Shown: positions 2,463 to 63,447, counted from the first letter of the stretch. The stretch: DNA of 64,000 bases from a virus (IMGVR_UViG_3300017613_001142:1-64000), one strand, 5' to 3'. The notes: generated from the sequence alone by a model not told the origin. A program made the numbers and translations.

Positions 2463-2463
2463 A

Positions 2464-2805
2464 TTATGCCTTGGTGTTGTCGTGCCATTGTTCTCCTCGA
2501 TTTATCGCATATTCAAACAATTTCAAAGCGTCATCGAGGTATAATGCTAGAATAAAATCCGGCGTATTGCTATTATTTTCGCGCGAATATCTGTTGATTA
2601 AACTCGCAAGTTCTTTTTTAAAAGTTGTTTCTTTAGTGATCTCTTTAAAATATTCCGGGTAATTTTCAATAAATTTTCTCGGCAAATACTTTTCATCTAA
2701 AAAAGGCGGACCATTCCCTTTATAATAATATTCTCCAAATTTTTCAATGATATCACCTCTATCAAAATCCCTAAATAAATTAGTTATTACTCGATACTTT
2801 TTCAT
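2464..2805 (-). CDS. hypothetical protein (113 aa)
   Basis: ORF track. Lies between the annealase and the exonuclease. Confidence 0.7.
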   Translation of the reverse strand: MKKYRVITNLFRDFDRGDIIEKFGEYYYKGNGPPFLDEKYLPRKFIENYPEYFKEITKETTFKKELASLINRYSRENNSNTPDFILALYLDDALKLFEYAINRGEQWHDNTKA

Positions 2806-5264: not shown

Positions 5265-5753
5265 TTAAAAATTCCCCGGCGCGACTTGACAGCAAACCAA
5301 GCCCATTTTTCGCCACATGTCGACAACTTTTTGGCGGTCATCGAAAATTATAAAATCATCCAGTGTTATTTTTGACTTCAAATCTTCTTGTATATCCAAT
5401 AGAAGACTTTCAAACATTTCGCTTTTTACTTTTCTGTCATCTCTGTAATCGACTTCCTCACGCATCCATAATCCATAATAACCAGTTCTTACGCCATTGT
5501 TATTATTAAAAATATGTTTATCTATCCATTCTTGCGTTGTTATTTCTATTTCTTCAGAGCGATCACTTAAAATTGCGACAATATTTTGCGCTGATAATCG
5601 TAAATCATGAAAAAGCTCTATAATTAATTTATTAGGCTTATCGTATCCACAAGCCGCGTTAAAAGCTTTCCAGTTTTTCGGGTTCTCTTCAAGAAAATGT
5701 TGCCTATGCTCATTCAAAGCCAGCGTCCCGTCTAAACTAAATATTGCTATCAT
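5265..5753 (-). CDS. HAD-superfamily phosphatase-like protein with non-canonical motif I
   Basis: MIAIFSLDGTLA resembles HAD motif I (DxDGT) but has Ser (AGT) at the nucleophile position. C-terminal IIFDDRQKVVDMW resembles HAD motif IV. Confidence 0.6.
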   Translation of the reverse strand: MIAIFSLDGTLALNEHRQHFLEENPKNWKAFNAACGYDKPNKLIIELFHDLRLSAQNIVAILSDRSEEIEITTQEWIDKHIFNNNNGVRTGYYGLWMREEVDYRDDRKVKSEMFESLLLDIQEDLKSKITLDDFIIFDDRQKVVDMWRKMGLVCCQVAPGNF

Positions 5754-6715: not shown

Positions 6716-7600
6716 CTAATCAATTTTAATTCCTGAAATTTCTTCAAAAACTTTGGCGTCAAAATTAGGCAAAGCTTTTAATAACTCGATATCTTCCGAA
6801 GTCGCTTTTCCATACGCAAGTCGCCATGCTTCTTTATATTCTAATGACTTCAAATAACCGCCACCGCAAGTTTCGGTGTTTGGATAGTTTTTCTTTTCAT
6901 TATCCGACATATTATCAAAATCAATCCATATCGTTAAATCAAAATAAATAAAACTTGGTTTCGATGCATCTTCCCATTCTGAGCGCAAGCATTTTTTATT
7001 AAAAACATTAATATATTCAGATTGTTCAGAATTAAAAAACCCCGTTTCATTGTTCGTTTTATTCCAATGGCCGCTATTACTGTCGCCGCTATTACTGTCG
7101 CCGCTATTACTGTCGCCGCTATTCCTGTATCCGCTATTCCAGTCGCCGCTATTCCTGTGGCCGCTATTCCAGACGCCGCTATTCCAGACGCCGCTATTCC
7201 TGTGGCCGCTATTACTGTCGCCGCTATTACTGTCGCCGCTATTACTGTCGCCGCTATTCCTGTATCCGCTATTACTGTCGCCGCTATTCCTGTATCCGGT
7301 GTTATGTTTGCCGGAATTGACTAATATTAAAACTTCATGCCAACCCAACTCTTTTACAATTTTAAGCGTTTCTGTTACGCTTTTATCATTACCTTTCTTA
7401 ATTTTACCGCTCGCATAAATTTCAGCGACTTTATTTTGTGGATCAAATGAATAATAATTAAAACAATCAGCCAAACTCTCACAAAAATGAAACCCCGCGT
7501 CACATAATCCAATTTCACCGTCATGCCTATATGTTTTACCAACTTCATATTGAAAACCAAGACATTTCCAATCAGAACCAAAAACTTTATATCCTTTCAT
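6716..7600 (-). CDS. pentapeptide-type repeat protein (xNSGx units) with globular N- and C-domains
   Basis: Start set at ATG 7600 (MKGYKVFGSDWKCLGFQYEVGKTY) with GGAG upstream. About 20 tandem units NSGDS/NSGYR/NSGVW/NSGHR. Confidence 0.8.
   Translation of the reverse strand: MKGYKVFGSDWKCLGFQYEVGKTYRHDGEIGLCDAGFHFCESLADCFNYYSFDPQNKVAEIYASGKIKKGNDKSVTETLKIVKELGWHEVLILVNSGKHNTGYRNSGDSNSGYRNSGDSNSGDSNSGDSNSGHRNSGVWNSGVWNSGHRNSGDWNSGYRNSGDSNSGDSNSGDSNSGHWNKTNNETGFFNSEQSEYINVFNKKCLRSEWEDASKPSFIYFDLTIWIDFDNMSDNEKKNYPNTETCGGGYLKSLEYKEAWRLAYGKATSEDIELLKALPNFDAKVFEEISGIKID
7070..7297. repeat. 15-bp periodic tandem repeat (gccgctattVctgtM)
   Basis: Read directly. This is the DNA image of the pentapeptide repeats. 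Confidence 0.9.
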
Positions 7601-7672
7601 TCTCAAACTCCTATAAAAAATTATCACATAAAACAAAATATAATTCCAGAATATGTCATTAATTTAAAATTG

Positions 7673-15587: not shown

Positions 15588-16988
<1,401 letters not shown>

Positions 16989-17023: not shown

Positions 17024-18061
17024 CTATTTCCTGTTAATTAAAAAATCATAACTCTTAGTTAATTCAATAAACTCTTTTCCGTCGCCGCCAACTATATCAG
17101 GATGACACGTTAAAACTTTTTTTCGGTACGCTTTCTTGATATCTTTGATTGTCGCGACTTCCGATAATCCTAATATCTCTAAATGATAAGACTTTGGATG
17201 TTGAAATTTAAACTCCATAGCGCGCCATTTGTGCTTATTGGCGTTATACCATTCGGTGTATTTTTTCTTGCGGCCTGATTCGTTTAAAGTAGCCTTAGTA
17301 GCTCTGTTGATTAAATCTTCGGTAACTCCAAAAACTTGGAATATATTTTTATTCGAATGATTATAGAAATCAAATTTAATTTTCTCGCACAACTCATCAA
17401 CCGGAATATCCTTAAACTTAAAATGCGAATAAAACACTTGACTTGTGTCCGTCATCCACTCACGACAGCGAATTATCTTTTTAATATACCATCCTGTTAG
17501 TGAATCACGCAAGCTATAATATTCAGCAATTAACGGATCAATTTCTCTAACTAATTCATTTTCAATGATATCATCAAAATTGTCAGCCGTCACGCCATTG
17601 CGAATCACGCCCCGCCAATAACTTTCAGGATTAATATTTCTGTTATAATCATGATCGGGATAACTATCATATTGAATATCATCCAAGTCATTATGCACAA
17701 GATGATAGTCAAATAACCGTTTTATCGTTTTTTTAAGTTGAAATTTATCATGTTTAACGGCGGAATAATTAGGAAAAAATTGTTTAATACAATCCGCTAT
17801 ACCTCTGTAAATTTTAAGATATTCTTTTATGTATTCTGAATATTCAACTCGCACTTCATCTTGATTTTTACGGCGCGCTAATTCTTTTTCGTCCGTCCTT
17901 TTTTCTTGAGTATGTGAACTAAAAAAATATTCTTTCCCGAAAAGCCACAATTGAGTTTGATCTTGAATTTTGTTATATTGGCGACGTTTCCATGATCGCA
18001 TAGGCATTGATCCAAGTTGCTCGATGCGTAAAATTGAGTATAGGAGGACTTTATTTAGCAT
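17024..18061 (-). CDS. protein with C-terminal J domain (DnaJ-like co-chaperone domain)
   Basis: C-terminus ILGLSEVATIKDIKKAYRKKVLTCHPDIVGGDGKEFIELTKSYDFL contains the HPD tripeptide. The N-terminal 280 aa carry no recognised motif. Confidence 0.75.
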   Translation of the reverse strand: MLNKVLLYSILRIEQLGSMPMRSWKRRQYNKIQDQTQLWLFGKEYFFSSHTQEKRTDEKELARRKNQDEVRVEYSEYIKEYLKIYRGIADCIKQFFPNYSAVKHDKFQLKKTIKRLFDYHLVHNDLDDIQYDSYPDHDYNRNINPESYWRGVIRNGVTADNFDDIIENELVREIDPLIAEYYSLRDSLTGWYIKKIIRCREWMTDTSQVFYSHFKFKDIPVDELCEKIKFDFYNHSNKNIFQVFGVTEDLINRATKATLNESGRKKKYTEWYNANKHKWRAMEFKFQHPKSYHLEILGLSEVATIKDIKKAYRKKVLTCHPDIVGGDGKEFIELTKSYDFLINRK

Positions 18062-29225: not shown

Positions 29226-30104
29226 CTAAAAACTTATTTGCTTATTGATAGGTTTAGTTTTCCCATTAACCGAATTAATAAATTTAAACATATGCGATAC
29301 TACATCAACCGTCCAACAATTACCAATAGCTTTATAACGCGCGGAATCTGATAACCCCGATGTAAAATTATCAGACAAAGTCTGCAATCGCTCTGCTTCC
29401 AAGGGGGTGATAAAACGTAATAGTTGATCACTGATTTTTACTAAATTGCCAGTCCAGCTAGATATTTGTCGAGCTGTCATGCATATACTTTTTGGCACGT
29501 CATTTATAATGCATGAATATTTTTTAGATAATTGTTTTATTTGATTTTTACTCCACCAATTATGCCAAGTTTCACTATTTGGCTCTTTATAATTCCATTC
29601 AATAATATCTTTTGCTTTAATATTTCGATCAATCGGCTTTGTAATGCTCCAATTGCACCAATACAAACGCCGCCTTGATTGCGCTGATAGTATCGCGCTA
29701 TTAATTTTAATAGGCAGAACTCCAAGTATATCAGTAATAATATTCTCAGATTGCTTATTCATCATTACATTCTCAAGGAAAAAGTATTTCGGTTGAAAAT
29801 GTTTCAGGCAATCCACAAATTCAAAGAAAAGCTTTGACCTTGGATCATCAAAATTTAATTGTTTCCCCGCAAAACTAAAACCTTGACATGGTGATCCGCC
29901 TATTAATAAATCAATCTTCGGCAATTCCCATTTACGCCAATCGCAAACATCACCTAATCTAATTATATTAGAAAAATTATTTTGTGAAATTTGGATAGCG
30001 TGTTTATCTATTTCAGATGCGAAATAATTTGTGATGGGAAGGTTGGCGCGTTGCAGGGCAAGATAACCGCAAGAAATACCATCAAATAGGCTTAATATAT
30101 TCAT
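29226..30104 (-). CDS. DNA (cytosine-5) methyltransferase
   Basis: Motif I LSLFDGISCG, motif IV GGSPCQGFSFAG, motif VI FFLENV, motif X GNCWTV. Confidence 0.9.
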   Translation of the reverse strand: MNILSLFDGISCGYLALQRANLPITNYFASEIDKHAIQISQNNFSNIIRLGDVCDWRKWELPKIDLLIGGSPCQGFSFAGKQLNFDDPRSKLFFEFVDCLKHFQPKYFFLENVMMNKQSENIITDILGVLPIKINSAILSAQSRRRLYWCNWSITKPIDRNIKAKDIIEWNYKEPNSETWHNWWSKNQIKQLSKKYSCIINDVPKSICMTARQISSWTGNLVKISDQLLRFITPLEAERLQTLSDNFTSGLSDSARYKAIGNCWTVDVVSHMFKFINSVNGKTKPINKQISF

Positions 30105-34178: not shown

Positions 34179-34747
34179 TTACGGATTTGCCTCAAAGAAA
34201 GCCCGAGCAAATCCCGGCGGCGTGATCGCGCGCCTTTCAGTCCTCGAAAGACTGCCATAATATTCAGGGTGAATCTCTTTGCTCTTCAGCATTGAAAATT
34301 TTATTACGCCTGTAGGCTTGACCGCAACGCCTGCTTGTGGAAATTTAAAATTCCCCCACAAACAAGTTTTCTTTTGATAATTATCCCCGAACTCCCATGG
34401 GTCAAACCTAAAACTTGGCTTTCCAAGCCACTTTTTCAAATAGCCGTCGGGATTTTCCAGCACCCACCACTTTGGTTGGCAGGTTAAAATTATCCGTATA
34501 CATGCGCTGACAATCTCAAGCCCCGCGCGAAAATTATGCTCATATTTTCCTTTGCCGTGGAAATGTTTAGCATAAGAAAACTCTGTGCAGGGAGGAGCCG
34601 CCAGCACTCCGTGGACATTGTCGGGCGGCGCGTATAAACAAACATCGTTTTCGGGAAGCGTAATAAGCCGAACATCATATAGCCGGCACTTCTGTAGGGA
34701 GCACTCCATGAGCCGGTTCCCCCGCATAGATCAAGTATTTTTTTCAT
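34179..34747 (-). pseudogene. short C5-cytosine-methyltransferase-like gene split by a frame change near 34677-34681
   Basis: Frame A gives MKKILDLCGGTGSWSAPYRSAGY (motif I-like). Frame B gives DVRLITL...AAPPCTEFS (motif IV-like), WWVLENP (motif VI-like) and RRAITPPGFARAF. The junction lies at a TATAT tract. Confidence 0.55.
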
Positions 34748-39311: not shown

Positions 39312-42300
39312 TCAACTCATTAAAGCGGTTAAACTTGTTATTTGAGCCTCTAATGAAGTTACGCGCGCTCGCGTTTCATGCACATGCTCTTGAAATGCTT
39401 TCATTAAAATTGGAGAACCTAATACTGAATTTTTAGGATACAAATAACCAGACGCATTTTCGCTAACTAATGACGGGAATATTTCTTGAACATCTTGAGC
39501 GATATAACCGATTAATTTTTCAGAACTTTGATTTATATGATAGGTGACAATTGGAATTTGTAAAACTTTTTCCAGTTTATCGGATGGTGTGTTAATGTTG
39601 TTTTTCAATCTTCTATCCGATATCGTCGTATATACCCCGTTTGTGTTTAATACGTCTCCATTTGCCGAGACAATAAAATGCAATCGACCAGGGCTAGTCA
39701 CATCACTAACTCCTAAAATCAGAGACGCCGCCGCCTGTGTGGTTGTATTATATAGAGCTAAAGGGGGGTTTGATGAATTTTCAGCGTAAAGAGCTGGCAA
39801 TGCCACCGATACGCTGGCATCGGTGCCTGTAAATTTAGCTGATTTATCGAAAAATGCCGGACTTTGAATATGCATACTCGATCCAGCCCATTGCTCAATA
39901 GGCCCATTTCTGACATAGAATCCCCCCCCGCTATCAATTGTTGTGTCAGCAAATATAGACACTCGTCTCTCAAGATCGGTAGTCCCTTTCACAAATAGCC
40001 CGCCGCTGCTAATATTTACGAAATATGATTCAAGTCCTGAATCAACATCTAAATAACCGATATTAGCAGAACCAGCGTATAATAACGAAAAACTTCCAAC
40101 ACCGGCTCGCATATCTGATGCGACTAATGTTTCAAGCGTTAAATCAGCAATCGAAAGGTTATCTATTGCTGCTGACCCCGCATGTAAATTACTAATACTA
40201 CCCACCCCGGCGCGCATATCGGAAACAATCAGAGTATCTAAAACTAAATCCGTGATATTAATATTATCAATCGTCGCTGAATTAACATGTAGTAACGCCA
40301 CACTTGCCGCGGTTGTTTGAAAATTAGACGACGCTTCGATTGTATCAAAGCTCGCGGTTTCTCCAATTAGATTTGTAGCGATTAAATCCGCGATAGTCGC
40401 ACTGTCAGATTCCAAAATTCCCGCGTTTAGATTCGTAAAACTACCCGCGCCAACACGTAATCCAGATGTCACAATGCTTTCAGCCGCGACATTATCTATA
40501 TTTCCAATCTGTATATCTGCAATACCTATATCAGCTATCAAACTATTAAAATTAGACGCGACATTCAGTGTATTAATACTCGCTATATCAACAGCTAAAT
40601 CTGATGTTATAATCGTGCCTATATCTAAATTTTGAATATTAGCCGAATTTACATGTAATAAATTAACGCTAGCAACCCCGGCGCGAAAGTCTGAACTGAT
40701 TAATGATTCAATATTTCCTGATATAACGTTTGTAATATTAAAACTTGCCGCGTCGCTAATTGTGCCGCTATTTATAATATTTTCAGCTCTGAGTTCATTA
40801 TTAAATTGTATTCCGTCACATGATTGAAACGTCAATATATCGCCTGATGATTCGCCGCCTATTAATATTTGACCGCCGTCCCGTCCTGCTAAAAGAGCAT
40901 ATTGCAAATGATCATCGTCACCTAACCCGCCTAAAGAACCATGATCGGCGGCTGACACACCGGCCGCGAGTGGTGTTGTTCTCCAATCAACATAATTTTC
41001 GCCCGCGTCCGTTTGTATTACTCGCGCGTTTACATCATTGGCGAAAGTATCTTTTGTTTCAAAAATTATACTCCCAATCGGTTTTAATTCTTTTGTTGGT
41101 AGTCCACTTAATACAAGATTATTAATTTCAGTTTCCGCGCCCACTTTCGCGTCATTGGCATTATTATATTGAGCTTGTCCGACTATACTAATGCAATCGC
41201 CATCAGCCGCGTTTGAAGCAAATACATGAATTAAAACAAATCTTCCGTTTGTCACTGCGGTTAATGTTCCGCTATCATCATACGCTAAGCGCGTCGCGCT
41301 TGTGCCGTCAAGCGTGATGCATTTAAACCCCGTTTGCGTTCTCCACCGCCAATTTGTCCCGTCTCGAAAAAAAACTTTTGTCGCTGTTGTGGAATCAATA
41401 GCATTTAAATCAATAGACAAATCTTCATCAAAACAAACGCCGGACGCTATACTAAATTGAGCGTCTTCATTGTCTGCGCCTGTGCTAATAACAAAATCAC
41501 CGAGTCCAAGACCACTAATGTATGCAAACCCTACAATTTGATGCAAATAACTATGCGTTCTCGGAGCCATGTTCGCGCCGTGACGTTCATCATATAAAAT
41601 CCCTTCATTACTAGACGCATTATAATAAACTATAGCTGTTAGGGCTTTATTTAAAACTAAATCAACGAATTGCGTTCCAGTTGGTTCTAGTATATTGGCG
41701 AGTGTCGATGTGTCATAATATATCGCGTGCAATCCTTCAGAGTCCCCTAATGTAATTGCGTTATATCCGGCTTGGTCATCGCTTGTAACTGTATATTTTT
41801 CACCTGCTACAAAATATTCAAACGCCGTTCCTGTTCTATTTATAACAAATCTTCTGTTTGTATCACTAAAAGCGATTGTCGATTGAGTTTGATCTACAAA
41901 CCCATTCTGTAGCCACTCATCATTTTTTGTTAAATTCGTTTCACTTTCAACATACAAATTAATAAAAAAACCTGAATTACTATGTAGTAAGTTTATACTT
42001 GCGACGCCCGATCTGAAATCAGAAGATATTAATGATTCAATGTTAGCCGAATTCGCGGTTAAAATTCCTATACTAGCGTTATCAGTTTGAAAATTATTTG
42101 TTAATAGATCGTTAATTTGGCCGCTAGACGCGCTTAAAATGTTTAAACTTCCTATTCCTATACGAGCGTTAGAGCTAATTAAACTTTCAATCTCAGAGCT
42201 GTTTATTGTAGCAAAAACGGCTGTAAAATCATTAATGTTAGCCGAATTACTATGTAAAAGGTTTATACTGCCAACTCCGATTCTAGCGTCTGATGCGATT

Positions 42301-43274
42301 AAAGTTTCAGTTAATAAATTATCAATTTCCGCGCTTCCTATATTAGCTATTAACGAAACAAATTCAGAAGCGACGTTTAATGCATTAACACTGGCCGCGT
42401 CCGCTGCGAAATCAGTAGTTATAATGGTTTCCGCACTAATTAAGGGGCTAATTAAATCGGTTATGGTCGCGCTATCTATTAATGCTACGCCTATCCCCGC
42501 GTCCGTTAAACTCCCAACACCAGCTCGCAAGTCAGAAACTGTTAATGTTTCTAAATTTAAATCTGTGATACTCAAATTATCAATCGCAGCCGAGCCAACA
42601 TGTAAATTACTAATACTAACTACACCGGATCGAAAGTCAGACGAAATTAAACTTTCTATATTCCCCGATTGAGCTTGCAAAATTGCGACGCTTGCATTAT
42701 CTGTTTGAAATTCAGATGTAACTACAATATTAAAACTAGCAATATCCGCCTGAATATTGGATAAAACAAGTGTGTCTAAATCAAGATTATCAATTACGGC
42801 TGATCCAACATGTAACGCGCTGATACTAGCGACACCAAAACGCGCTTCTGATGAAATTAAACTATCAATGTTCCCACTTTGAACATTAATAATATCCGCG
42901 CTTAACGCGCTGATTATTCCGTCTGAAACACTAATTGAATCTAATTCAATATTATCAAACGTCGCGCTTCCGGCGTGAAGTGTTCCGAAACTTCCGACCC
43001 CGGCGCGAAAATCGGACACGACTAAAGTGTCGAAATCAATGTTTTCTATCTTTGCACTTGTAACATCTAATGTTCCAAAACTAGCCACACCCGCGCGTAT
43101 TCCAGACGTTATTACGCTTTCAGCTTCGAATAAAACAGACGCCGCGCACGACACATCTATTTTAGGCGAACCGCTATCCTGTTGAGCGAGCGCGGTAAAA
43201 TTAGCCTGCATTTGATCTAATTCCGTCGCTTTTAAAATGTCGCCTGATGTAAAATCTAAAGGGGTCCACACCAT
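39312..43274 (-). CDS. long tail fibre/spike with repetitive shaft and C-terminal S74-type intramolecular chaperone domain
   Basis: Many units like ESLISSDFRAGVASxNLLHVNSAxIxNLD. C-terminus TISDRRLKNNI...IGYIAQDVQEIFPSLV...LEAQITSL. Confidence 0.9.
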   Translation of the reverse strand: MVWTPLDFTSGDILKATELDQMQANFTALAQQDSGSPKIDVSCAASVLFEAESVITSGIRAGVASFGTLDVTSAKIENIDFDTLVVSDFRAGVGSFGTLHAGSATFDNIELDSISVSDGIISALSADIINVQSGNIDSLISSEARFGVASISALHVGSAVIDNLDLDTLVLSNIQADIASFNIVVTSEFQTDNASVAILQAQSGNIESLISSDFRSGVVSISNLHVGSAAIDNLSITDLNLETLTVSDLRAGVGSLTDAGIGVALIDSATITDLISPLISAETIITTDFAADAASVNALNVASEFVSLIANIGSAEIDNLLTETLIASDARIGVGSINLLHSNSANINDFTAVFATINSSEIESLISSNARIGIGSLNILSASSGQINDLLTNNFQTDNASIGILTANSANIESLISSDFRSGVASINLLHSNSGFFINLYVESETNLTKNDEWLQNGFVDQTQSTIAFSDTNRRFVINRTGTAFEYFVAGEKYTVTSDDQAGYNAITLGDSEGLHAIYYDTSTLANILEPTGTQFVDLVLNKALTAIVYYNASSNEGILYDERHGANMAPRTHSYLHQIVGFAYISGLGLGDFVISTGADNEDAQFSIASGVCFDEDLSIDLNAIDSTTATKVFFRDGTNWRWRTQTGFKCITLDGTSATRLAYDDSGTLTAVTNGRFVLIHVFASNAADGDCISIVGQAQYNNANDAKVGAETEINNLVLSGLPTKELKPIGSIIFETKDTFANDVNARVIQTDAGENYVDWRTTPLAAGVSAADHGSLGGLGDDDHLQYALLAGRDGGQILIGGESSGDILTFQSCDGIQFNNELRAENIINSGTISDAASFNITNVISGNIESLISSDFRAGVASVNLLHVNSANIQNLDIGTIITSDLAVDIASINTLNVASNFNSLIADIGIADIQIGNIDNVAAESIVTSGLRVGAGSFTNLNAGILESDSATIADLIATNLIGETASFDTIEASSNFQTTAASVALLHVNSATIDNINITDLVLDTLIVSDMRAGVGSISNLHAGSAAIDNLSIADLTLETLVASDMRAGVGSFSLLYAGSANIGYLDVDSGLESYFVNISSGGLFVKGTTDLERRVSIFADTTIDSGGGFYVRNGPIEQWAGSSMHIQSPAFFDKSAKFTGTDASVSVALPALYAENSSNPPLALYNTTTQAAASLILGVSDVTSPGRLHFIVSANGDVLNTNGVYTTISDRRLKNNINTPSDKLEKVLQIPIVTYHINQSSEKLIGYIAQDVQEIFPSLVSENASGYLYPKNSVLGSPILMKAFQEHVHETRARVTSLEAQITSLTALMS

Positions 43275-56056: not shown

Positions 56057-56506
56057 TTATGCAACCTTAAATTTTTTCTTGGCGTAATCCATGCCTTCTT
56101 TGTACCCAATATAATATTGTTCAGTACGCCCATTGTCTTTTTGTCGATACCTTCCAGCCCATGATCCGCCGTTCGCTTGAATCCCTAAATGAAAACCGGG
56201 ATCATTCCAGTCTGGATATATGCCAAATTCCACCTCATTCATTAGTCCGCGCCGGATAAGAAAGTTTTTTAAATGATATTCAGCGTCTAAAAACCCGCAT
56301 CCAATCACATGAAAATCAACTGCTTGGCCGTCATAATGTAGTGATTTAGAATTATCAGACGCCCATCCACGATGAATTTTCACTTTGCATCCGGTCGGAA
56401 CACTTCCTCTAAAATAATCCAATAAAACTAAAAGTCTGAAATCCATTTTTTCAGGATCACCCCACGCTTCATTTGGATAAAAATATTTTAATAATTTCCA
56501 TTTCAT
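56057..56506 (-). CDS. peptidase M15-type endolysin
   Basis: SKSLHYDGQAVDFHV fits SxHxxGxAxD. Later DPGFHLGI supplies the second His. Confidence 0.75.
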   Translation of the reverse strand: MKWKLLKYFYPNEAWGDPEKMDFRLLVLLDYFRGSVPTGCKVKIHRGWASDNSKSLHYDGQAVDFHVIGCGFLDAEYHLKNFLIRRGLMNEVEFGIYPDWNDPGFHLGIQANGGSWAGRYRQKDNGRTEQYYIGYKEGMDYAKKKFKVA

Positions 56507-56655
56507 AGTGCGTTTAACTTGTTAAGAATATTACATATTTTACATTTCTTTGTTTCTAAAAATTTCGGGAAAAATAAAACCAATATTAATACTAAAACAA
56601 AACATCCCTGAATAAAAAATAATAACTCAGCTGTGATATGTTCGGCGATTATCAT
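56503..56655 (-). CDS. small membrane protein (50 aa), holin/spanin candidate
   Basis: Own translation MIIAEHITAELLFFIQGCFVLVLILVLFFPKFLETKKCKICNILNKLNAL. ATGA overlap with the endolysin. Confidence 0.5.
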   Translation of the reverse strand: MIIAEHITAELLFFIQGCFVLVLILVLFFPKFLETKKCKICNILNKLNAL

Positions 56656-56659
56656 CGGT

Positions 56660-57082
56660 TTACCTTATGTCAAAATTTGGTTTTCCTCTGGTATTTAGCA
56701 CCCCGATATTAAATTCATTTCTGCCAATTCTTTTTTCTAAAGCATCTAATTTTTCACTCAATTTTTTGCGATTATTTTTCATCCAGTCTGAACTTTCAAA
56801 GACTTCTTTTTGTTCAATGCGTTTTTCAAGACGCTCAAATCTATCCATCATTGAACTAAGTTTTCCGTAAGACCCAAAAGCCATAGCAAGTACGCTTAGC
56901 AACGCAACAGCGACTGTGATTTTTTCAAACGGTTTAATAAACGCGGTAGAAGTAACGACGGATTGAGCTTGTTCACGCGCAATGCGCGGAATGTCACTTT
57001 CAAGTTTATTATGACGCTCTTTTAAATCATTAAATTTATCAGCAAAAAACGCTTTTAAATTTTCAATTTCAGTAGTAGTCAT
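56660..57082 (-). CDS. coiled-coil protein with central TM segment, lysis-cassette candidate
   Basis: ITVAVALLSVLAMAFGSYG is flanked by heptad-like regions. Confidence 0.6.
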   Translation of the reverse strand: MTTTEIENLKAFFADKFNDLKERHNKLESDIPRIAREQAQSVVTSTAFIKPFEKITVAVALLSVLAMAFGSYGKLSSMMDRFERLEKRIEQKEVFESSDWMKNNRKKLSEKLDALEKRIGRNEFNIGVLNTRGKPNFDIR

Positions 57083-57243
57083 TTCTTGGCGTCGTTTCGC
57101 TTTTTAAGAGCTTCATTCCACATACTTATACATATCGCGGCGGCTTGATCGCTTCTATCCGTTGTCCCCTCGTTAATAACTACAGGTATGCAACGACTAA
57201 TCCACTCGCTACGATTTTCGCTTTCAGGTCTTGGTATGGGCAT
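57079..57243 (-). CDS. small conserved phage protein (54 aa)
   Basis: Own translation MPIPRPESENRSEWISRCIPVVINEGTTDRSDQAAAICISMWNEALKKRNDAKK. ATGA overlap. Confidence 0.55.
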   Translation of the reverse strand: MPIPRPESENRSEWISRCIPVVINEGTTDRSDQAAAICISMWNEALKKRNDAKK

Positions 57244-57245
57244 TT

Positions 57246-60176
57246 TTACAAATATTTACCGTCGTTTTCAAATATAGCTAAACTATCATCAGCTAACAGA
57301 TTCATCAAGGATTTTAAATCTTCCTTATTTTCAACTTTCCCGCTAACCATATGCGGCTGTTTATTCGGCATAAGATTCATTTTATCAATTGTGATTCCAA
57401 ACTGAAAACTATACCCGCCTTGGCCATTAGTCATAAAATTAACTGTGTCGCTAATATATGGGAGAGAATCAAGCGCAAATCGCGTCTGTTTCAACTCAAT
57501 TAAATGACGCCAACCTTCAAGTATCTCTTTACACCTTTCAAGCATTTGCGGCGTGATTTGGCGTGTTTGTTCAAACTCAAATCTGTTTATATGATCCAAA
57601 TCACGAATAGTCAACGCCCTCCCAAGAAACCGCTCAGGATATTTTTGTTTATCTCGCAACATTAACGGCCAATTACGTTGAAACCTATCACGCCTAACAG
57701 CTTCATTTTCATAACCAACATGCATTATAGACGCTGTTTGATCGTTAAAAATATAAGTTTCGCCAGTTCCTTTATTCAACCCGTTTTCAGGATGTTCATG
57801 CACCACGCCATAAAAACGTATTCCGTTGAAATTTCTAAATAATCTACATGGAAGATCGGTTTTACTGACTCCAACAGGCTCCGCACCGAAATGATGCTGT
57901 GGGATAGCGTAAGCTTTAAAGTGATTATCTCGCAAATACGGTTTTATTTTATCCGCCCATGTCCACATTTCATCGTCGTCAATCCACAAAATCCAATCAT
58001 GTTGGGCTTTGATAATCGTGGCGTTTCGCGCTTCTTCAAAACCTATTTCTATCGGACTTGCGTTTGCAAAAATAGTCACATTTGGAAACTGAGACGCGCT
58101 TTTATATGTCAAGCAATCCTCTAATTTACCGGATAACGTGCCTTGATCAACCGCAATTATAAATTCATCGACAAACCCGTTAATAGATTGTAATGTTTTA
58201 TGAATTGTCCCACAATTAGCTTTAGTAATTAGACACGCTGAAACTTTATCACGCGGATTTTGTTGGCGCGCTTTACGATCATAATCAATGATTTTAAAAC
58301 CGTTGGTAATATCAGACGTTCGAGTCCATGACCACAAATAAAATCCGAATTTATCGCCGTTTTGTTCAGGATGATTTACAAAAAGAGTTTCTTTGTCTAT
58401 TTTTCTGGCTAAAATTTCTTCAATATCAGAGTGTTCAAACTGGTGTAGATGTTGACGCTTGTAGGGATAGCGATCAAAGGACAAAGCTTCCCAATGTCCA
58501 TACGGTGTGCTAAGGAAACATTTTCCGCTGTATTTTACTGATTTCTCCATATCAGTTAGAAATTTTTGATAATCCCAAATATGCTCTAAAACTTCGCCAA
58601 CTATGACGGCGTCATATTTTTCAGATTCGAGTCTTGACGGATCAATACATTGAAATAATGAAACATTAGCAAGATTATTTTTAGCAATAAATTCGTTGCC
58701 AATCTCGATTTGTTTCCCATCTATGTCGCATCCCTCGAAAATCAAATCGGGGAACGTAGCGGCTAGAGCTGTTGTCACATGCCCAACACAACACCCATAA
58801 TCAAGCACACGACTACCCGGCGGCAATTGCGATATTTCATTAACTAACGGTCTCACACGCGGAATATTCAGCGTTTGTTGGTATGCTCCAAGCCCGTGGC
58901 TATCATCATTTTTTATATGATAATCAGCCATTTCCGCATAAAAATCAGTTGTGTCCGATAGATCGCGTCCTAGCGTCAAATAATTTTCAGCAAGAAACTG
59001 ATTATGTCCAAGGTTATGTTTCGCGTTCAATTCATTCGCGGCGGCTACATCTGAATTGTAAATAAAATGCTGAAATAGTCGTTCTTTTTTCTCTGTCAAC
59101 CTATTAAAATCTTTTTCAATCAATCGTTCTAATTTATTGACAGTATTATCCAAACCATATTCTTTCGATTTTTCAATAGCTTTATTATAAAGCGCGTCGT
59201 ATTTACTTGGTTTATCGCGCAACATCATAACCGCGTTTACAAACTCATTTGGTTGAGACCAAAATACACCCGCGTTATTTAATGTTTCTGGAAGCGCGGC
59301 GGTTTTCGTTGTTAAAAACGGTGTTCCGGCGGCTTGCTGTTCCATTGCGGTTATGCAACTAACCTCTTCAAAATCAGTTGGATAAATGTGAATCCATGCT
59401 TTTTTCATCAACTCAGCGAGTTCTTGCTTGCTGAGAAAACCGTAATTTCTAACGTTCGGTAATATCTGACATCTCTGCCACAACTGATTATATAACGGCG
59501 CGGATTGTGGTGTGGTATTATCATACCCGACGACGACTAATTGAATTTCAGGATCAATTTTATATAATTGTTCCATGATCCCGCCTTCGCCGACTAAATT
59601 AATTAATCCGCGTTCAGGTCGGGAACTGTAAATCATGATTTTGCTTTGCTTTTTCTCTTCCAGATCACCCGGCTGACACATCTCAAGATCAACACCATTA
59701 GGAATAAAATCAATATAATTTTCATTAATCCCATAAATCCGTTTGACTTGATCAACGTGAAACTGAGACACACACAGCACTTTATTAACGTTCCACATCA
59801 TGCCGTTGATATGCGGCGAATAACGTTTCAACGCTAGATCGTGAGTCCAAAAATAGTTCAACTTGGAAGCGTAATTGGCGTTAAAAATCCCGGCTGCTCT
59901 TTGCGCTAAAATGACATCAGTCGGTATATTTAGCGCGTGTTTCTGGAAGTTATCTCCGTATGGTGTTTCTTGCGAAACTTGACCAATTGGGATATATTCA
60001 ACGCCGTCCGTTATTGATATTTCAGGCGCATTGCAAAAACATTGTACTTTATGCCCTCGTTTGGCAAGTCCTTTTGCCACGTAGTAACCCATAGTTTCAG
60101 AGCCACCGAGAGACTTTCCTTGTCTGATTGTGTTACCGTCGAACGGTAATCCGGGGATATATGTTGTAATTTTCAT
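57246..60176 (-). CDS. three-domain enzyme: GT-B (GT4-like) glycosyltransferase, class I SAM methyltransferase, GT-A (GT2-like) glycosyltransferase
   Basis: N-terminus LGGSETMGYYVAKGLAKRGHKV and EEVSCITAMEQQAAGTP. Middle RVLDYGCCVGHVTTALA...AVIVGEVLEHI. C-terminus VSACLITKANCG...WILWIDDDE. Confidence 0.8.
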   Translation of the reverse strand: MKITTYIPGLPFDGNTIRQGKSLGGSETMGYYVAKGLAKRGHKVQCFCNAPEISITDGVEYIPIGQVSQETPYGDNFQKHALNIPTDVILAQRAAGIFNANYASKLNYFWTHDLALKRYSPHINGMMWNVNKVLCVSQFHVDQVKRIYGINENYIDFIPNGVDLEMCQPGDLEEKKQSKIMIYSSRPERGLINLVGEGGIMEQLYKIDPEIQLVVVGYDNTTPQSAPLYNQLWQRCQILPNVRNYGFLSKQELAELMKKAWIHIYPTDFEEVSCITAMEQQAAGTPFLTTKTAALPETLNNAGVFWSQPNEFVNAVMMLRDKPSKYDALYNKAIEKSKEYGLDNTVNKLERLIEKDFNRLTEKKERLFQHFIYNSDVAAANELNAKHNLGHNQFLAENYLTLGRDLSDTTDFYAEMADYHIKNDDSHGLGAYQQTLNIPRVRPLVNEISQLPPGSRVLDYGCCVGHVTTALAATFPDLIFEGCDIDGKQIEIGNEFIAKNNLANVSLFQCIDPSRLESEKYDAVIVGEVLEHIWDYQKFLTDMEKSVKYSGKCFLSTPYGHWEALSFDRYPYKRQHLHQFEHSDIEEILARKIDKETLFVNHPEQNGDKFGFYLWSWTRTSDITNGFKIIDYDRKARQQNPRDKVSACLITKANCGTIHKTLQSINGFVDEFIIAVDQGTLSGKLEDCLTYKSASQFPNVTIFANASPIEIGFEEARNATIIKAQHDWILWIDDDEMWTWADKIKPYLRDNHFKAYAIPQHHFGAEPVGVSKTDLPCRLFRNFNGIRFYGVVHEHPENGLNKGTGETYIFNDQTASIMHVGYENEAVRRDRFQRNWPLMLRDKQKYPERFLGRALTIRDLDHINRFEFEQTRQITPQMLERCKEILEGWRHLIELKQTRFALDSLPYISDTVNFMTNGQGGYSFQFGITIDKMNLMPNKQPHMVSGKVENKEDLKSLMNLLADDSLAIFENDGKYL

Positions 60177-60193
60177 ATTAATAAAATCTCATA

Positions 60194-60379
60194 TTAAAGT
60201 ATTCTAAAAACATCCCATTTTTCAGGATAATTGTTTTCATTTTTATTAAATTTTCTTTGCATAATCATGCGACTATTGCTTTTATACTCAGCATAACATT
60301 TTGAACATCGCATTATGCTGATTTTCATATCAAGCCAAAACTCATAATTGCCACATTCACATTCGAAACTTTCATTCAT
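60194..60379 (-). CDS. zinc-ribbon protein (61 aa)
   Basis: CECG...CSKC. Confidence 0.6.
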   Translation of the reverse strand: MNESFECECGNYEFWLDMKISIMRCSKCYAEYKSNSRMIMQRKFNKNENNYPEKWDVFRIL

Positions 60380-60404
60380 ATTTATTTACCCTTGAGAAAT
60401 CATA

Positions 60405-61238
60405 TTAAAATGGTAATTTTTCACAAATAAAACCAGCGGCTTTTTTATGACCACCTCCGCCAAATTTAGCGGCTATTTTTGAACAATCGACATTGTCCTT
60501 AGTCGAATACATGCTAAATGTATATTTCTGACCGTTAAAAGAGAATGGCATCATAATATCATGTTTTGATTCATCATATATAGAATCAAATAACTGTGAT
60601 CTTCTTTCATGGGAATTACAAACAATTGCTTTTAACCCTTCAAAATCAAGTTCAAATCCATTGTCTTTAACTTGTTTTTCATACTCTTTGGCAATATATC
60701 TTGAAATTGGATCACCTTCTTTGAGATAAAATTCAACGTCATCGCTATCTAATAAACTTTGCCAAATTTCATTAGTTGGGAAAGTTTCATAACTTCGCAT
60801 GGCGTTTTGAAACAGATTTGTTTTATCTTTATATTGAAACGCAAATACGTCATAATCGCCTAACAATTTTATCGCAAATGGAGTTGGTCTATTTTCAAAG
60901 AAATATTTCCATGCTAATTCGCAAGCGGCTGTCCCGTCTTTTCTTATTCCAGATAAGTCCAAATTCCCGAATTTTTCTAACGCCGAAGCATGATGATCAA
61001 TCCAAACAACACCATCAGTAATTTTATTTAATCGTTTCCATTCATTATTGTCTTTTAATGAATAATCAACGATATAAACTTGCTCACCTTTTTTGATCTT
61101 GTCAAACGGGAAATCACGATCATAATTTATTTCAAAAAAGTCATCTTTCTTGAATGGTAATCCATACTCTTTATAATATTTTGCGAGTATAGCGGCTGAA
61201 CAATGTCCGTCCAAATCATTATGATAAAAGCACTTCAT
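60405..61238 (-). CDS. DHH/DHHA1-family phosphoesterase
   Basis: FYHNDLDGHCSAAIL, YIVDYS, VWIDHHAS, GGGHKKAAGF. Confidence 0.85.
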   Translation of the reverse strand: MKCFYHNDLDGHCSAAILAKYYKEYGLPFKKDDFFEINYDRDFPFDKIKKGEQVYIVDYSLKDNNEWKRLNKITDGVVWIDHHASALEKFGNLDLSGIRKDGTAACELAWKYFFENRPTPFAIKLLGDYDVFAFQYKDKTNLFQNAMRSYETFPTNEIWQSLLDSDDVEFYLKEGDPISRYIAKEYEKQVKDNGFELDFEGLKAIVCNSHERRSQLFDSIYDESKHDIMMPFSFNGQKYTFSMYSTKDNVDCSKIAAKFGGGGHKKAAGFICEKLPF

Positions 61239-61252
61239 ATTAAAACCTTATA

Positions 61253-61444
61253 TTAATTACTGACTAGCATTTGTATTGTTGTGTCATATTCATTTTTCGT
61301 CGGACATTTAATTTCAAACGGCTCATGCTCTCCAATAAGACAAACTTGAACTATTTTCTTTTTCTTGTCTGCTTGCACAAATGCGATCATGCTTTTTCTC
61401 ACCCATACATCGTGAAGATGCGGTAATTTAATCAAATCATTCAT
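61253..61444 (-). CDS. hypothetical protein (63 aa)
   Basis: ORF track. Confidence 0.6.
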   Translation of the reverse strand: MNDLIKLPHLHDVWVRKSMIAFVQADKKKKIVQVCLIGEHEPFEIKCPTKNEYDTTIQMLVSN

Positions 61445-61538
61445 ATTAAAATCTCATATTTATACGGCTCATCAATATCTCAAATTCTAAGCGTTAGCAT
61501 TGTAAACATCTTGAACTTGGATTCAATAAGCCGCGTTT

Positions 61539-63398
61539 TTATATTAATCCATGTTGTTTAAATTTTCGTTCATAATCAATCATTCCTATTTCATTATTTT
61601 CAGAGCGCGTCCACTCCCATAAATAATTGGCGATAGGAATATTTTTAATCGGATAAGTCGGGATTTTAACAATCATAACATCCTGTTTATGCCCGATCAT
61701 TTCCTTTAAATCTTCAGGTTCATAATGATGAATATGTTCTCTATGCAATTCGTCCAATTCATCCGATAATATCTCAAGCGGGCCAGAAGGCGTTGTGATA
61801 TGCATCCGTCCACCAATCTTTAAACTTCTTTCGAGTCCTTCTAAAAACTCTTTATATTCAAGGATATGCTCTAATGTTTCTGTACAAATTACAAAATCAT
61901 ATTTTTCTGTTTCAAGTTTTTCAGGATCATCGCATTCAAAATACACAACATTATGGATATTTTCTTTTTCACTGAATTCATTAGCGATTTTCAATTTTAT
62001 CGGACTAATATCCGCGCCTTCAAACTTCAAAAGCGGAAACATTTTAGCTAATAAAACAGTTACTTCCCCGATTGAGCATCCATAATCCAAAACCAACGAT
62101 TCCGGTTCTAAATTTGACATATTATGAATTAAATGTTGAATGCGCGGAAATTTCATCAATCGGTCATACTCTCCCAAAACTTTCTGGAAGCCGCCTTTTT
62201 CAACTGTTTCATCAGCTACTTGATCTTGAAAATTCTTAGTGGCTCGAAAACTTTGATATAAAGTTTCAAAAGTTTCACGTAAAAAATCATCTTGTCCTAG
62301 ATTGCATTTTTCGTTTAAAATTTTCGCGGCGACTATATCGGAATTATAAATAAAACGATCAAATATTTTTTGCGGTTCAACTGACTGTTTTTCTAATGTC
62401 AAAAGTTTTGGAATCCAATATTTTTCAACCACTTCGTCCCATGTCATAGCTTTTGACCACGCGCCCGCGCTGTCATTCTCATATTTCAAACTTCCATGGA
62501 CGAATTTAGGATAAGCGATATATTCACTTCCAACCGTTTCCGATAAAGCCCCGATTTTATTAACGATTGGAACACAGCCGCAATACTGAGCTTTGACAGC
62601 GTTTAAACAAAACAATTCTGAGTCAGGATTATTTAGCGGTAAACACCAATATTGAGCTTTCCAATATTCGCGTTCGATTTCGTCTTTATTTAATTGTCCT
62701 AAATATTCAATCCCATCCTGTTTTAGAAGCGAATCAATTTGATTTTTAAATTGTCTGACTGGCATATTTCTGAAATCAAAATGCCGCCAACCATATGCAA
62801 CTTTTAATGTTAGTTCAGGATGTTTTTGTTTGATGTGTTTCCAATCGGTAAGTAATTGCAATAATCCCCTATCCGGTGAGCTACAATATAGCATTGTATT
62901 AGGGATTTTTTCACACTTGTTTTTATCAAGCGATTCAATATCAACACCAAGCGGAAAAGCATATTGTTTTTCAGACGGGACAAACACATTTCGACGACGC
63001 TGATAATGAGATATATTCACAAAAGCGTCTATCGAGTTGATATTAAAGTCATGCGTTTGTTGATTCATCCCCCAACTTGGCTCAATATCGGCGGTCAAGT
63101 GTATGTTTTTCTTTGCTTTCGCTCCTTTTAACCAAGGGGAATTGTCTTTAAATGTAATAAATATTTCATCAGCGTTACATTTCGCGCTTTCTCGCGGAAT
63201 ATAATGGACGCCGTTATGCAATTTAATCTCTTGTGTTCTCGCTGAATGATAAACAATCACGTCATAATCAGCGCGTTTTAACGCTTCAGCCAATAACACA
63301 ACCAGTTCTTCAGACCCACCAAGAAATTTATCAAGGTCAGTTGGTTCCCATGCGGGATAAACTTGATTTGTAAATATTTTAATTTTTTCTTTGCTCAT
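61539..63398 (-). CDS. two-domain enzyme: GT-B-like glycosyltransferase plus class I SAM methyltransferase (paralogue of 57246..60176)
   Basis: LGGSEELVVLLAEALKRADYDV. LVLDYGCSIGEVTVLLA...FVICTETLEHI. Linker FDRFIYNSDIVAAKILNEKCNLGQDDFL versus FQHFIYNSDVAAANELNAKHNLGHNQFL. Confidence 0.8.
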   Translation of the reverse strand: MSKEKIKIFTNQVYPAWEPTDLDKFLGGSEELVVLLAEALKRADYDVIVYHSARTQEIKLHNGVHYIPRESAKCNADEIFITFKDNSPWLKGAKAKKNIHLTADIEPSWGMNQQTHDFNINSIDAFVNISHYQRRRNVFVPSEKQYAFPLGVDIESLDKNKCEKIPNTMLYCSSPDRGLLQLLTDWKHIKQKHPELTLKVAYGWRHFDFRNMPVRQFKNQIDSLLKQDGIEYLGQLNKDEIEREYWKAQYWCLPLNNPDSELFCLNAVKAQYCGCVPIVNKIGALSETVGSEYIAYPKFVHGSLKYENDSAGAWSKAMTWDEVVEKYWIPKLLTLEKQSVEPQKIFDRFIYNSDIVAAKILNEKCNLGQDDFLRETFETLYQSFRATKNFQDQVADETVEKGGFQKVLGEYDRLMKFPRIQHLIHNMSNLEPESLVLDYGCSIGEVTVLLAKMFPLLKFEGADISPIKLKIANEFSEKENIHNVVYFECDDPEKLETEKYDFVICTETLEHILEYKEFLEGLERSLKIGGRMHITTPSGPLEILSDELDELHREHIHHYEPEDLKEMIGHKQDVMIVKIPTYPIKNIPIANYLWEWTRSENNEIGMIDYERKFKQHGLI

Positions 63399-63410: not shown

Positions 63411-63447
63411 TAAAATCATAATAAAAGCGCGCCTCGAAAGACGCGCT
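63411..63447 (-). terminator. rho-independent terminator after the capsid gene
   Basis: AGCGCG-N10-CGCGCT, followed on the minus strand by TTTTATTATGATTTT. Confidence 0.65.

Follow-up and report, generated by a model that had tools for sequence, protein, structure and literature searches.

A capsid-linked glycosyltransferase–methyltransferase fusion as a candidate head-glycosylation enzyme of uncultivated tailed phages

The GT2 enzymes GmaR, SunS, and ThuS are soluble glycosyltransferases (GTs) that glycosylate a folded protein or peptide directly, at a Ser, Thr, or Cys residue. GmaR of Listeria transfers N-acetylglucosamine onto flagellin, and the tetratricopeptide repeat (TPR) domain that follows is proposed to bind the protein substrate (PMC9638930). 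SunS-type enzymes carry out S- or O-glycosylation of ribosomal peptides (PMC12457901, PMC8620827). Here we analyze a relative of these enzymes encoded by IMGVR_UViG_3300017613_001142:1-64000, a viral stretch of 64,000 nucleotides referred to below as the window. Its open reading frame (ORF) A (57246..60176) joins a GT4 domain, a class I S-adenosylmethionine (SAM) methyltransferase (MT), and a GT2 domain in one polypeptide and lies near the gene of the major capsid protein (MCP), as does a second, shorter fusion, ORF B (61539..63398). ORF A emerges from our analysis as a candidate enzyme for glycosylation of the phage's own head.

Residues ~640–976 of ORF A find their best profile and structural relatives in GmaR and SunS/ThuS, with which they have DxD and VHE motifs and, putatively, a trailing helical domain in common. 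ORF A differs from these enzymes in its low identity to them (~17–30%), in the fusion of this part behind GT4 and MT domains, and in its gene setting, which is a phage head module and not a cluster for flagella or bacteriocins. A viral parallel is A064R of the chlorovirus PBCV-1, a three-domain enzyme with two GT activities and an MT that caps the terminal sugar of the capsid glycan (PMC7826918). Domain order distinguishes the two (GT4-MT-GT2 in ORF A, GT-GT-MT in A064R), as do folds and families, and the top 50 structural matches of ORF A in BFVD do not include A064R. A064R elongates an existing N-glycan in a virus of eukaryotic algae, whereas ORF A, which occurs in tailed phages, appears to carry its own protein-directed initiating transferase.

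In the mycobacteriophages Che8 (gp110), Corndog (gp38), and Myrna, phage GTs modify capsid and tail-tube subunits with C-terminal glycans (PMC12619734, PMC12363180). Unlike ORF A, these systems consist of separate single-domain GTs and have no fused MT or SunS-like domain; their hosts are Actinobacteria, whereas the ORF A family is found in metagenome-assembled genomes (MAGs) of Desulfobacterota, SAR324, and Gammaproteobacteria. A tblastn search of 50,697 phage records (INPHARED, E ≤ 1e-5) with ORF A and ORF B returned no mycobacteriophage, only ~29%-identical matches to the GT domains in six records each. A preliminary description of this locus had drawn the parallel with A064R and the mycobacteriophages, which stands as an analogy of function but not as homology, none being detectable.

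Methylation of a non-reducing terminal sugar is familiar from bacterial systems that combine GT4-type enzymes with SAM MTs, among them WbdA/WbdD of Escherichia coli O8/O9a, WsaE of the Geobacillus S-layer, and mycobacterial ManT/MeT. These act on lipid-linked or free glycans of envelope or cytoplasmic polysaccharides and have neither a GmaR/SunS-type domain nor a link to a capsid gene, and their likeness to ORF A is at least that of generic GT4 and MT folds. To our knowledge, a few mycobacteriophages are the only tailed phages for which virion glycosylation by the phage's own enzymes is established, and multidomain GT/GT/MT enzymes for capsid glycans are known from giant algal viruses alone. 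We found no description of the ORF A family in the literature; the GT4-MT-GT2 combination, its constant place behind the capsid gene, and its wide spread among uncultivated phages appear to be undescribed.

Domain Identity of ORF A

The preliminary description had reported two large ORFs separated by a DHH phosphoesterase gene and two small ORFs, and all of these genes are present exactly where it had placed them. The motifs it had named (VLDYGCCVGH, VLDYGCSIGE, WILWIDDDE, and FIYNSD) were likewise all found in the translations. Its reading of ORF B as a GT-B-like domain plus a class I SAM MT is upheld by Pfam (Table 1), and its reading of ORF A as the same two domains plus a GT-A/GT2 domain agrees with Pfam, with profiles built against the PDB, and with Foldseek. 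The homology of the two proteins, linker included, was also confirmed by BLASTP (31% identity over 636 columns, E 2e-75), well outside what chance would give. In ORF A, the Pfam matches are Glyco_transf_4 (8.6e-12), Glycos_transf_1 (2.9e-11), and Methyltransf_23 (2.3e-13), with both GT matches above the gathering score. Five Pfam Methyltransf families (_23, _31, _11, _25, and _12) score above the gathering threshold, as do five in ORF B. PHROGs calls a glycosyltransferase in the region, and a Glycos_transf_2 (PF00535) match is precomputed for most ORF A homologues.

Profile searches against the PDB gave MshA as the closest structure to the GT4 domain and generic class I enzymes for the MT domain (down to 5.7e-21), while the C-terminal domain matched GmaR (5.4e-24), SunS (2.7e-21), and ThuS (3.6e-17). 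At the residue level, WILWIDDDE aligns with WIVAIDADE of GmaR and WIYFIDADN of SunS, which share the DxD, and VVHEHPE aligns with AIHEQ of GmaR and KVHEEP of SunS, which share (V/I)HE. The AlphaFold model of ORF A has a predicted local distance difference test score (pLDDT) of 93.2 and a predicted template modeling score (pTM) of 0.90. In Foldseek searches with this model, the N-terminal third retrieved MshA, PimA, the methylmannose-polysaccharide mannosyltransferase ManT, and WaaG, with target TM-scores of 0.66–0.78 (0.7–0.78 for the first three). SunS/ThuS were the sole GT-A folds among the top 50 matches, aligned over 311–335 columns that span the GT-A domain and the helical domain after it. 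The model places helices at residues 825–915, followed by a small beta/helix unit; a TPR-like domain there is putative. This C-terminal helical/beta domain is a candidate acceptor-recognition domain. By descent, the parts of ORF A are a GT4 enzyme, a class I MT, and a member of the GmaR/SunS branch of GT2.

The residues expected to matter in each domain are well conserved in an alignment of 50 ORF A homologues that are 37–87% identical. E271 and E279, the EX7E pair of GT4, are at least 90% conserved, and the same is true of MT motif I, VLDYGC..G. Invariant or near-invariant positions of the GT-A domain include D677, W731-D733-D735-E736, H762, and H793-E794-H795-P796. Because the characterized close relatives of the GT-A domain all glycosylate polypeptides directly, we read it as a probable protein-directed transferase. 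No membrane segment was detected in ORF A or ORF B (maximum KD19 = 1.35); for want of a hydrophobic segment, we read both enzymes as soluble and rejected a membrane association.

This relationship bears on two alternatives. One holds that the genes hypermodify phage DNA, by base glycosylation and methylation, as a protection against restriction. DNA hypermodification with diverse glycans by phage GTs and MTs is indeed known (bioRxiv 10.1101/2023.12.21.572611), C5 DNA methyltransferases are encoded in the genome, and a GT of Manatee Spring phage contigs, weakly related, bears the annotation “beta4glucosyltransferase”. However, the GT-A domain is nearest to protein rather than DNA glycosyltransferases, and ORF A and ORF B lie in the head module, with the nearest DNA methyltransferase ~27 kb away. 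Among the Pfam annotations of the window and contig, in which many ORFs are unannotated, there is no TET/JBP/5mYOX protein, no dCMP/dUMP or thymidylate-synthase-like hydroxymethylase, and no other recognized hypermodification gene. DNA is scarcely a credible target on these grounds. The other alternative is that the product is a free or lipid-linked methylated oligo- or polysaccharide comparable to the mycobacterial methylmannose polysaccharides. The alternation of GT and MT follows the logic of the methylmannose pathway, and ManT (7qsg) is among the top structural matches of the GT4 domain, but it matches no better than MshA, PimA, and many other GT4 enzymes. A free glycan would also leave the invariant GmaR/SunS-type domain and the strict MCP linkage described below unexplained, and we regard it as very unlikely. 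A protein-directed enzyme remains our preferred reading of ORF A.

Family Size and Linkage to the Capsid Gene

ORF A belongs to a very large family. A word-indexed search returned 704 homologues, and the best 120 are almost all full length (~950–1030 amino acids) with the same Pfam set. An exhaustive HMMER search with the C-terminal 336 residues (E ≤ 1e-30) gave 289 clusters at 50% identity, nearly all of ~950–1030 amino acids with the queried domain at the C-terminus. At least 330 IMG/VR contigs encode a relative. The preliminary view of ORF A as the elaborated copy of a duplicated module does not hold, as ORF A is the conserved core enzyme of this family. In bacterial data with one genome per species, the sole sources of full-length copies are MAGs of Deltaproteobacteria, Desulfocapsa, Desulfarculales, SAR324, and Gammaproteobacteria; where the match is confined to the GT2 domain (~30% identity), the gene is a cellular GmaR/SunS-like one, from Bacillota, Fimbriimonadales, and other groups. 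The multidomain GT/MT proteins that BFVD offers, from uncultured phages, are just ~13% identical, and blastn of the 6.1-kb region against the 50,697 phage records gave no match.

We collected 80 IMG/VR loci seeded on the enzyme and counted the 73 that each have at least 1.4 kb of upstream sequence. An MCP of the same clade lies upstream on the same strand in 73/73, with a median gap of 320 bp (range 5–2143 bp), and is itself preceded by the protease/scaffold gene and a gene for a ~125-amino-acid head protein. The converse count was made in loci seeded on the MCP, where the enzyme lies downstream in 61/61 loci with at least ~550 bp of sequence after the MCP (the eight that lack it have less than 420 bp there). 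The two sets share contigs and are not independent samples. In all, the enzyme recurs behind this type of capsid gene in considerably more than a hundred related phage contigs. Four MAGs keep the same order, one of them with the prophage on a 982-kb Deltaproteobacteria contig, the prophage-bearing MAGs being assigned to Deltaproteobacteria, Desulfocapsa, Desulfarculales, and Gammaproteobacteria. The genes 3′ of the enzyme fall into at least two unrelated sets, either siphovirus-type neck and tube genes or quite different ones. Since the enzyme is kept while tail modules differ, its conserved partner is the head module and not the tail. A locus on a MAG contig of an uncultured bacterium (L102:2837-8106) encodes a head decoration protein, a lambda-E-type MCP (PF03864), a 218-amino-acid GT2, and then a 774-amino-acid GT4-GT2 fusion without an MT. 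Judging from its gene order, this independent example shows that GT genes recur after an MCP outside this clade.

The linkage can be set against the possibility that the target is the host surface (lipopolysaccharide (LPS)/O-antigen, capsule, S-layer, flagellin, or pilin), where modification could block superinfection or reduce the sticking of progeny to debris. Many phage GTs are known to act in this way; serotype conversion by temperate phages is the subject of a review cited in PMC12619734, and flagellin is the natural substrate of GmaR (PMC9638930). The GT4 relatives include the LPS-core and polysaccharide enzymes WaaG and HepE, and some family members are prophages. Seroconversion genes, however, are usually morons beside integration or lysogeny regions and not an invariant gene of the head module, as the enzyme is in free phage contigs and prophages alike. 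The linkage follows the MCP clade and not host or tail type, the enzymes have no membrane segments, and the window contains no Wzx/Wzy/GtrA-type partners. A host-surface target is accordingly improbable in our estimation, and the constant association with the MCP favors a head protein.

The interval between the MCP and the enzyme varies in content. It is empty in ~16 loci, with the enzyme directly after the MCP, and many others encode there a small, conserved, Lys/Glu-rich protein with SAP/HeH-like ends, of which there are several kinds. Tailoring-type genes occupy it in ~20 loci. They include B-type GT4 genes (12 loci), a GDP-mannose 4,6-dehydratase (L002/L003, 2.8e-119), and tandem SAM methyltransferases (L032). 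Proteins of 168–219 amino acids with a P-loop-like “RHTGTHY” motif are encoded at L056:9480-9986, L070:9318-9977, and also in L071. These match nothing in Pfam or NCBIfam, and a sulfotransferase-like role for them would be a guess. Radical SAM proteins of 231–282 amino acids, with CxxxCxxC and a Cys-rich C-terminus, occur at L077:6611-8225 (two copies), L078:1361-2209, L080:8906-9619, and L084:4023-4748; their best NCBIfam matches are rSAM/SPASM peptide or protein maturases, which hints at further post-translational modification of a head protein or at an unusual sugar modification. Its gene content suggests that the interval is a hot spot where a pathway of glycan or protein modification diversifies. 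Coupling of GT and MT is retained, the two being fused in ORF A and ORF B and adjacent where split.

Such contents also raise the alternative that the enzyme modifies another phage or host protein or peptide, such as the tail tube, the portal, a host defense protein, or an adjacent glycocin-like peptide made on the ribosome and modified after translation (RiPP). SunS/ThuS modify small peptides encoded alongside them (PMC12457901), conserved ORFs of 50–100 amino acids often lie between the MCP and the enzyme, and the radical SAM/SPASM-like maturases of four loci are typical of RiPP pathways. The tail tube of mycobacteriophages is glycosylated as well (PMC12363180). Against this, the small ORFs have no conserved acceptor-like Cys/Ser/Thr motif, belong to unrelated families, and are missing in at least 16 loci, and tail modules vary among loci while the enzyme is constant. 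This alternative we hold to be unlikely. As glycocin-like acceptors in particular, the small ORFs were rejected on their Lys/Glu-rich composition, their division among several unrelated families, and their absence wherever the enzyme abuts the MCP.

Acceptor Candidates and Proposed Mechanism

Nearly all of 108 unique enzyme-linked MCPs carry a conserved V-x-S(S) tail past the last helix, for example ...V-N-S-S-T, ...V-T-S-V, and ...V-G-S-A-Q-A-N-G-L-T; the MCP of the window ends in ...NVTSSGSGGILP. Nine MCP homologues from cultured phages that have no such enzyme (23–27% identical) end 0–4 residues past the shared helix. The tail had been considered as proof of the acceptor, and these outgroup controls downgraded it to a hint. 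The Ser-rich C-terminus is a weak acceptor candidate as judged from these alignments. It parallels the glycan sites of mycobacteriophages, whose capsid and tail-tube subunits are modified at the C-terminus (Freeman 2023, cited in PMC12619734). The ~125-amino-acid head protein upstream of the MCP, annotated as “head fiber” in an Arthrobacter phage, would be an equally possible acceptor.

The preliminary description had suggested a phage-autonomous module for glycan synthesis and methylation beside the capsid gene. That suggestion is supported here and is strengthened by the MCP linkage and by the GmaR/SunS-type GT-A domain. On balance, it seems probable that the phage makes a soluble enzyme that assembles a short methylated glycan on one of the head proteins. 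ORF A would then be a soluble cytoplasmic trifunctional enzyme of the head module, active during particle assembly. In the first step, its GmaR/SunS-type GT-A and helical domains would bind the folded protein and transfer the first sugar from a nucleotide sugar to Ser, Thr, or Cys. The N-terminal retaining GT4 domain would attach a second sugar, which the fused SAM MT would cap by methylation. We infer that the MT acts on the added sugar because the fusion or adjacency of GT and MT is conserved. ORF B would add one more methylated sugar in this phage. The acceptor would most likely be the MCP, with its exposed-looking Ser-rich C-terminal tail as one site, or else the accessory head protein of ~130 amino acids. 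With such a glycan coat, the capsid surface would behave differently, for example in shielding, stability, or adhesion.

Several observations weigh against this proposal. In ORF A itself, the Glycos_transf_2 (PF00535) match is below threshold (2e-3; 18.4 bits against a gathering score of 23.3), and the score against the NCBIfam SunS family TIGR04195 is 24.5 bits against a cutoff of 350, which makes ORF A a relative of the SunS equivalog family, yet one outside it. The PDB relatives of the MT domain comprise small-molecule O- and N-methyltransferases, a glucose O-methyltransferase (6uv6), and protein lysine methyltransferases; these relatives span several kinds of substrate, and a sugar is suggested solely by the fusion to a GT. 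With regard to the acceptor, two of the nine outgroup MCPs are also Ser-rich at the end (SASS, AVSADA), a few enzyme-linked MCPs have no tail (KDVD, AVNG), and the difference in tails could be a mere clade character. Gene adjacency is a sign of co-inheritance with the head module and says nothing on the substrate. Late expression is read from gene order alone, and a terminator-like hairpin separates the MCP from ORF B. Two full-length relatives, of 1090 (L092:5105-8374) and 1120 (L095:2018-5377) amino acids, have no recognizable MCP upstream; they lie on short SAR324 and unclassified MAG contigs with unannotatable neighbors and may either mark the edge of a prophage or truly depart from the capsid linkage. 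No full-length homologue was found by tblastn among the 50,697 deposited phage genomes; no cultured phage carries the enzyme.

A more ambitious form of the proposal is that uncultivated tailed phages of a widespread clade, with MAG hosts in Desulfobacterota, SAR324, and Gammaproteobacteria, all glycosylate their own capsid as an obligate trait, by means of one hallmark enzyme that unites the initiating transferase, the elongating transferase, and the methyl cap; the Ser-rich MCP tail would be the site, and the extra genes in the interval after the MCP would vary the coat between lineages. We advance it tentatively, as a possibility that falls short of being probable.

Locus Layout, Lineage-Specific Genes, and Implications

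All genes of the region are on the minus strand (Table 1), with intergenic gaps of 2–94 bp. In the direction of transcription, the genes for a portal-MuF protein, a 264-amino-acid protein, a head maturation protease/scaffold (phrog_3894), and two head proteins of ~135 amino acids lead to the MCP, which is followed by ORF B (619 amino acids), the 63-amino-acid ORF, the DHH gene, the 61-amino-acid ORF, and ORF A (976 amino acids). Beyond ORF A come small membrane-type ORFs and then the Neck1, tail-tube (Phage_tube_2), and tape-measure genes. The full-length MCP has 329 amino acids in the source contig (L001) and matches the phrog_1005 major head protein at 3.7e-61; a homologue search with the 165-amino-acid fragment in the window gave 0 matches. 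The hairpin, which lies in the 59 bp that separate the stop of the MCP from the start of ORF B, is the sole one of its kind on the coding strand and may be an attenuator that allows high MCP and low enzyme expression. The layout fits a late operon attenuated after the abundantly needed MCP, as far as gene order can tell. No tRNA was detected by a tRNA scan.

Table 1. Features of the capsid–ORF A region, listed in the direction of transcription (positions in the window)
Feature	Position	Strand	Evidence and remarks
MCP, C-terminal half	63458..>64000	−	phrog_1005, 3.8e-26 on the fragment; Ser/Gly-rich tail ...LLTNVTSSGSGGILP
Terminator-like hairpin	63426..63447	−	9-bp stem with 6 GC pairs, then T-run; consensus scan
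ORF B, N-terminal “B-type” GT4-like domain (residues 1–340)	62379..63398	−	Pfam Glycos_transf_1, 1.1e-9
ORF B, helical linker and class I SAM MT (residues 341–619)	61539..62378	−	Methyltransf_23, 1.1e-16; motif I VLDYGCSIGE
Small ORF, 63 amino acids, no family	61253..61444	−	Lineage-specific; among fetched loci in L001 and the window
DHH/DHHA1 phosphoesterase, 277 amino acids	60405..61238	−	Pfam DHH, 3.8e-9; DHHA1, 1.9e-4; phrog_4771, 1.8e-47
Small ORF, 61 amino acids, four Cys (CxC...CxxC), zinc-ribbon-like, no family	60194..60379	−	
ORF A, domain 1, retaining-type GT4 (GT-B fold) (residues 1–360)	59097..60176	−	EX7E intact, E271...E279
ORF A, helical linker (FIYNSD...) and class I SAM MT (residues 361–640)	58257..59096	−	Motif I VLDYGCCVGH
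ORF A, domain 3, GT-A/GT2 of the GmaR/SunS protein-glycosylating type (residues 641–845)	57642..58256	−	Profile against PDB; Foldseek
ORF A, C-terminal helical/beta domain (residues 846–976)	57246..57641	−	AlphaFold; Foldseek

ORF B has a composite origin. Its GT domain groups with the GT-only genes that lie between MCP and enzyme in 12 loci and forms with them a conserved B-type subfamily, whose motifs run parallel to those of ORF A. In B-type GTs, ORF B included, the first Glu of EX7E is retained and the second is always Lys or Arg, so that ORF B carries part of the motif. The ORF B GT domain is 22–25% identical to A-type GT4 domains, whereas its linker and MT are ~41% identical to those of ORF A of its own clade, above the values for other clades. 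The fusion occurs only in its own contig, L001, and in one close relative, L171; in a 68%-identical relative, the counterpart is split into adjacent GT and MT genes. By these comparisons, ORF B is a lineage-specific mosaic of a B-type GT and a linker and MT copied from ORF A within the clade. With regard to the duplication proposed in the preliminary description, the linker and MT are the copied part, and the GT half belongs to a distinct subfamily. Another arrangement is found in a 1333-amino-acid protein (P0060) on a 17-kb JGI contig, in which a B-type GT (38% identical to the ORF B GT) precedes a complete GT4-MT-GT2.

The DHH gene and both small ORFs are confined to this phage's own contig (L001 and the window among the fetched loci), and the place of the DHH gene is taken by a GDP-mannose 4,6-dehydratase in the 68%-identical relative. 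The DHH protein is weakly NrnA-like (NCBIfam NrnA, 5.9e-4, far under the cutoff). As a conserved member of the pathway it was rejected on account of this restricted distribution, and it is probably a lineage-specific passenger. A role as a 3′-phosphoadenosine 5′-phosphate (pAp) phosphatase tied to a sulfotransferase-like gene of the L056 and L070 kind would be pure speculation, as the L056 and L070 proteins match no family. The synteny of MCP, GT/MT, DHH, and GT/MT/GT genes named in the preliminary description survives in its conserved core, the succession of MCP and ORF A, while the DHH gene and ORF B are lineage-specific.

The placement given in the preliminary description, downstream of the MCP gene and upstream of lysis and head-tail genes, is correct for the MCP directly upstream and the head-tail genes downstream; the lysis label (56057..57082) is plausible, with weak matches only. 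Between ORF A and the head-tail genes (56057..57243, −) lie a 54-amino-acid ORF, a 140-amino-acid protein with a central hydrophobic segment, a 50-amino-acid hydrophobic ORF, and a 149-amino-acid protein with weak similarity (E ~0.2–0.4) to hedgehog/LAS-type zinc peptidase folds. From this gene content, a lysis cassette between ORF A and the head-tail genes is plausible.

Elsewhere, a matching JGI contig (Ga0186782_1100153; 96,997 bp, sample 3300017527) starts at window position ~7266, and the window spans the point where the two ends of that record meet; this points to a genome of ~97 kb that is circular or terminally redundant, or to a second assembly. The window also encodes an SNF2 helicase, DnaB, and a 1320-amino-acid protein (39312..43274, −) with a C-terminal Peptidase_S74 intramolecular-chaperone domain typical of tail fibers and spikes. 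C5 cytosine DNA methyltransferase-like genes lie at 29226..30104 (−) and 34179..34727 (−, weak), with no TET/5mYOX partner recognized nearby. The early or middle region contains a gene for a 458-amino-acid Glu/Leu/Phe/Val dehydrogenase (15588..16964, −; PF02812 and PF00208), which is glutamate dehydrogenase-like and an unusual auxiliary metabolic gene for a phage; a gene for a DnaJ-domain protein adjoins it (17024..18061). A 306-amino-acid protein with DUF7666 (4.6e-32) and pentapeptide repeats (6716..7636, −) is encoded near a RecT/YqaJ recombination pair (1323..3896) and a PNKP-type HAD phosphatase (5265..5753). The 68%-identical relative carries an Acb2/Tad1-hairpin-family gene, of an antidefense sponge family, in the interval of tail tube and tape measure (L002:18096-18482) and a Prim-Pol domain gene among the head-tail connector genes (L002:15594-16181). 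In L092, the neighbors of the enzyme gene include a GntR regulator and a Vgb-lyase-like gene on the opposite strand.

If the proposed function is true, capsid glycosylation with methylated sugars would be conserved across a large group of environmental phages whose hosts are Gram-negative. Capsid glycosylation would then be common and genetically encoded, no mere curiosity of mycobacteriophages, and it would be recognizable from one easily identified marker gene beside the capsid gene. Some 290 protein clusters now known as “glycosyltransferase/methyltransferase” would gain a testable annotation, and a compact protein-glycosylation system in one polypeptide would become available for glyco-engineering. 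For the phages themselves, such a coat would bear on particle stability, on adhesion, and on recognition by grazers or immune systems.

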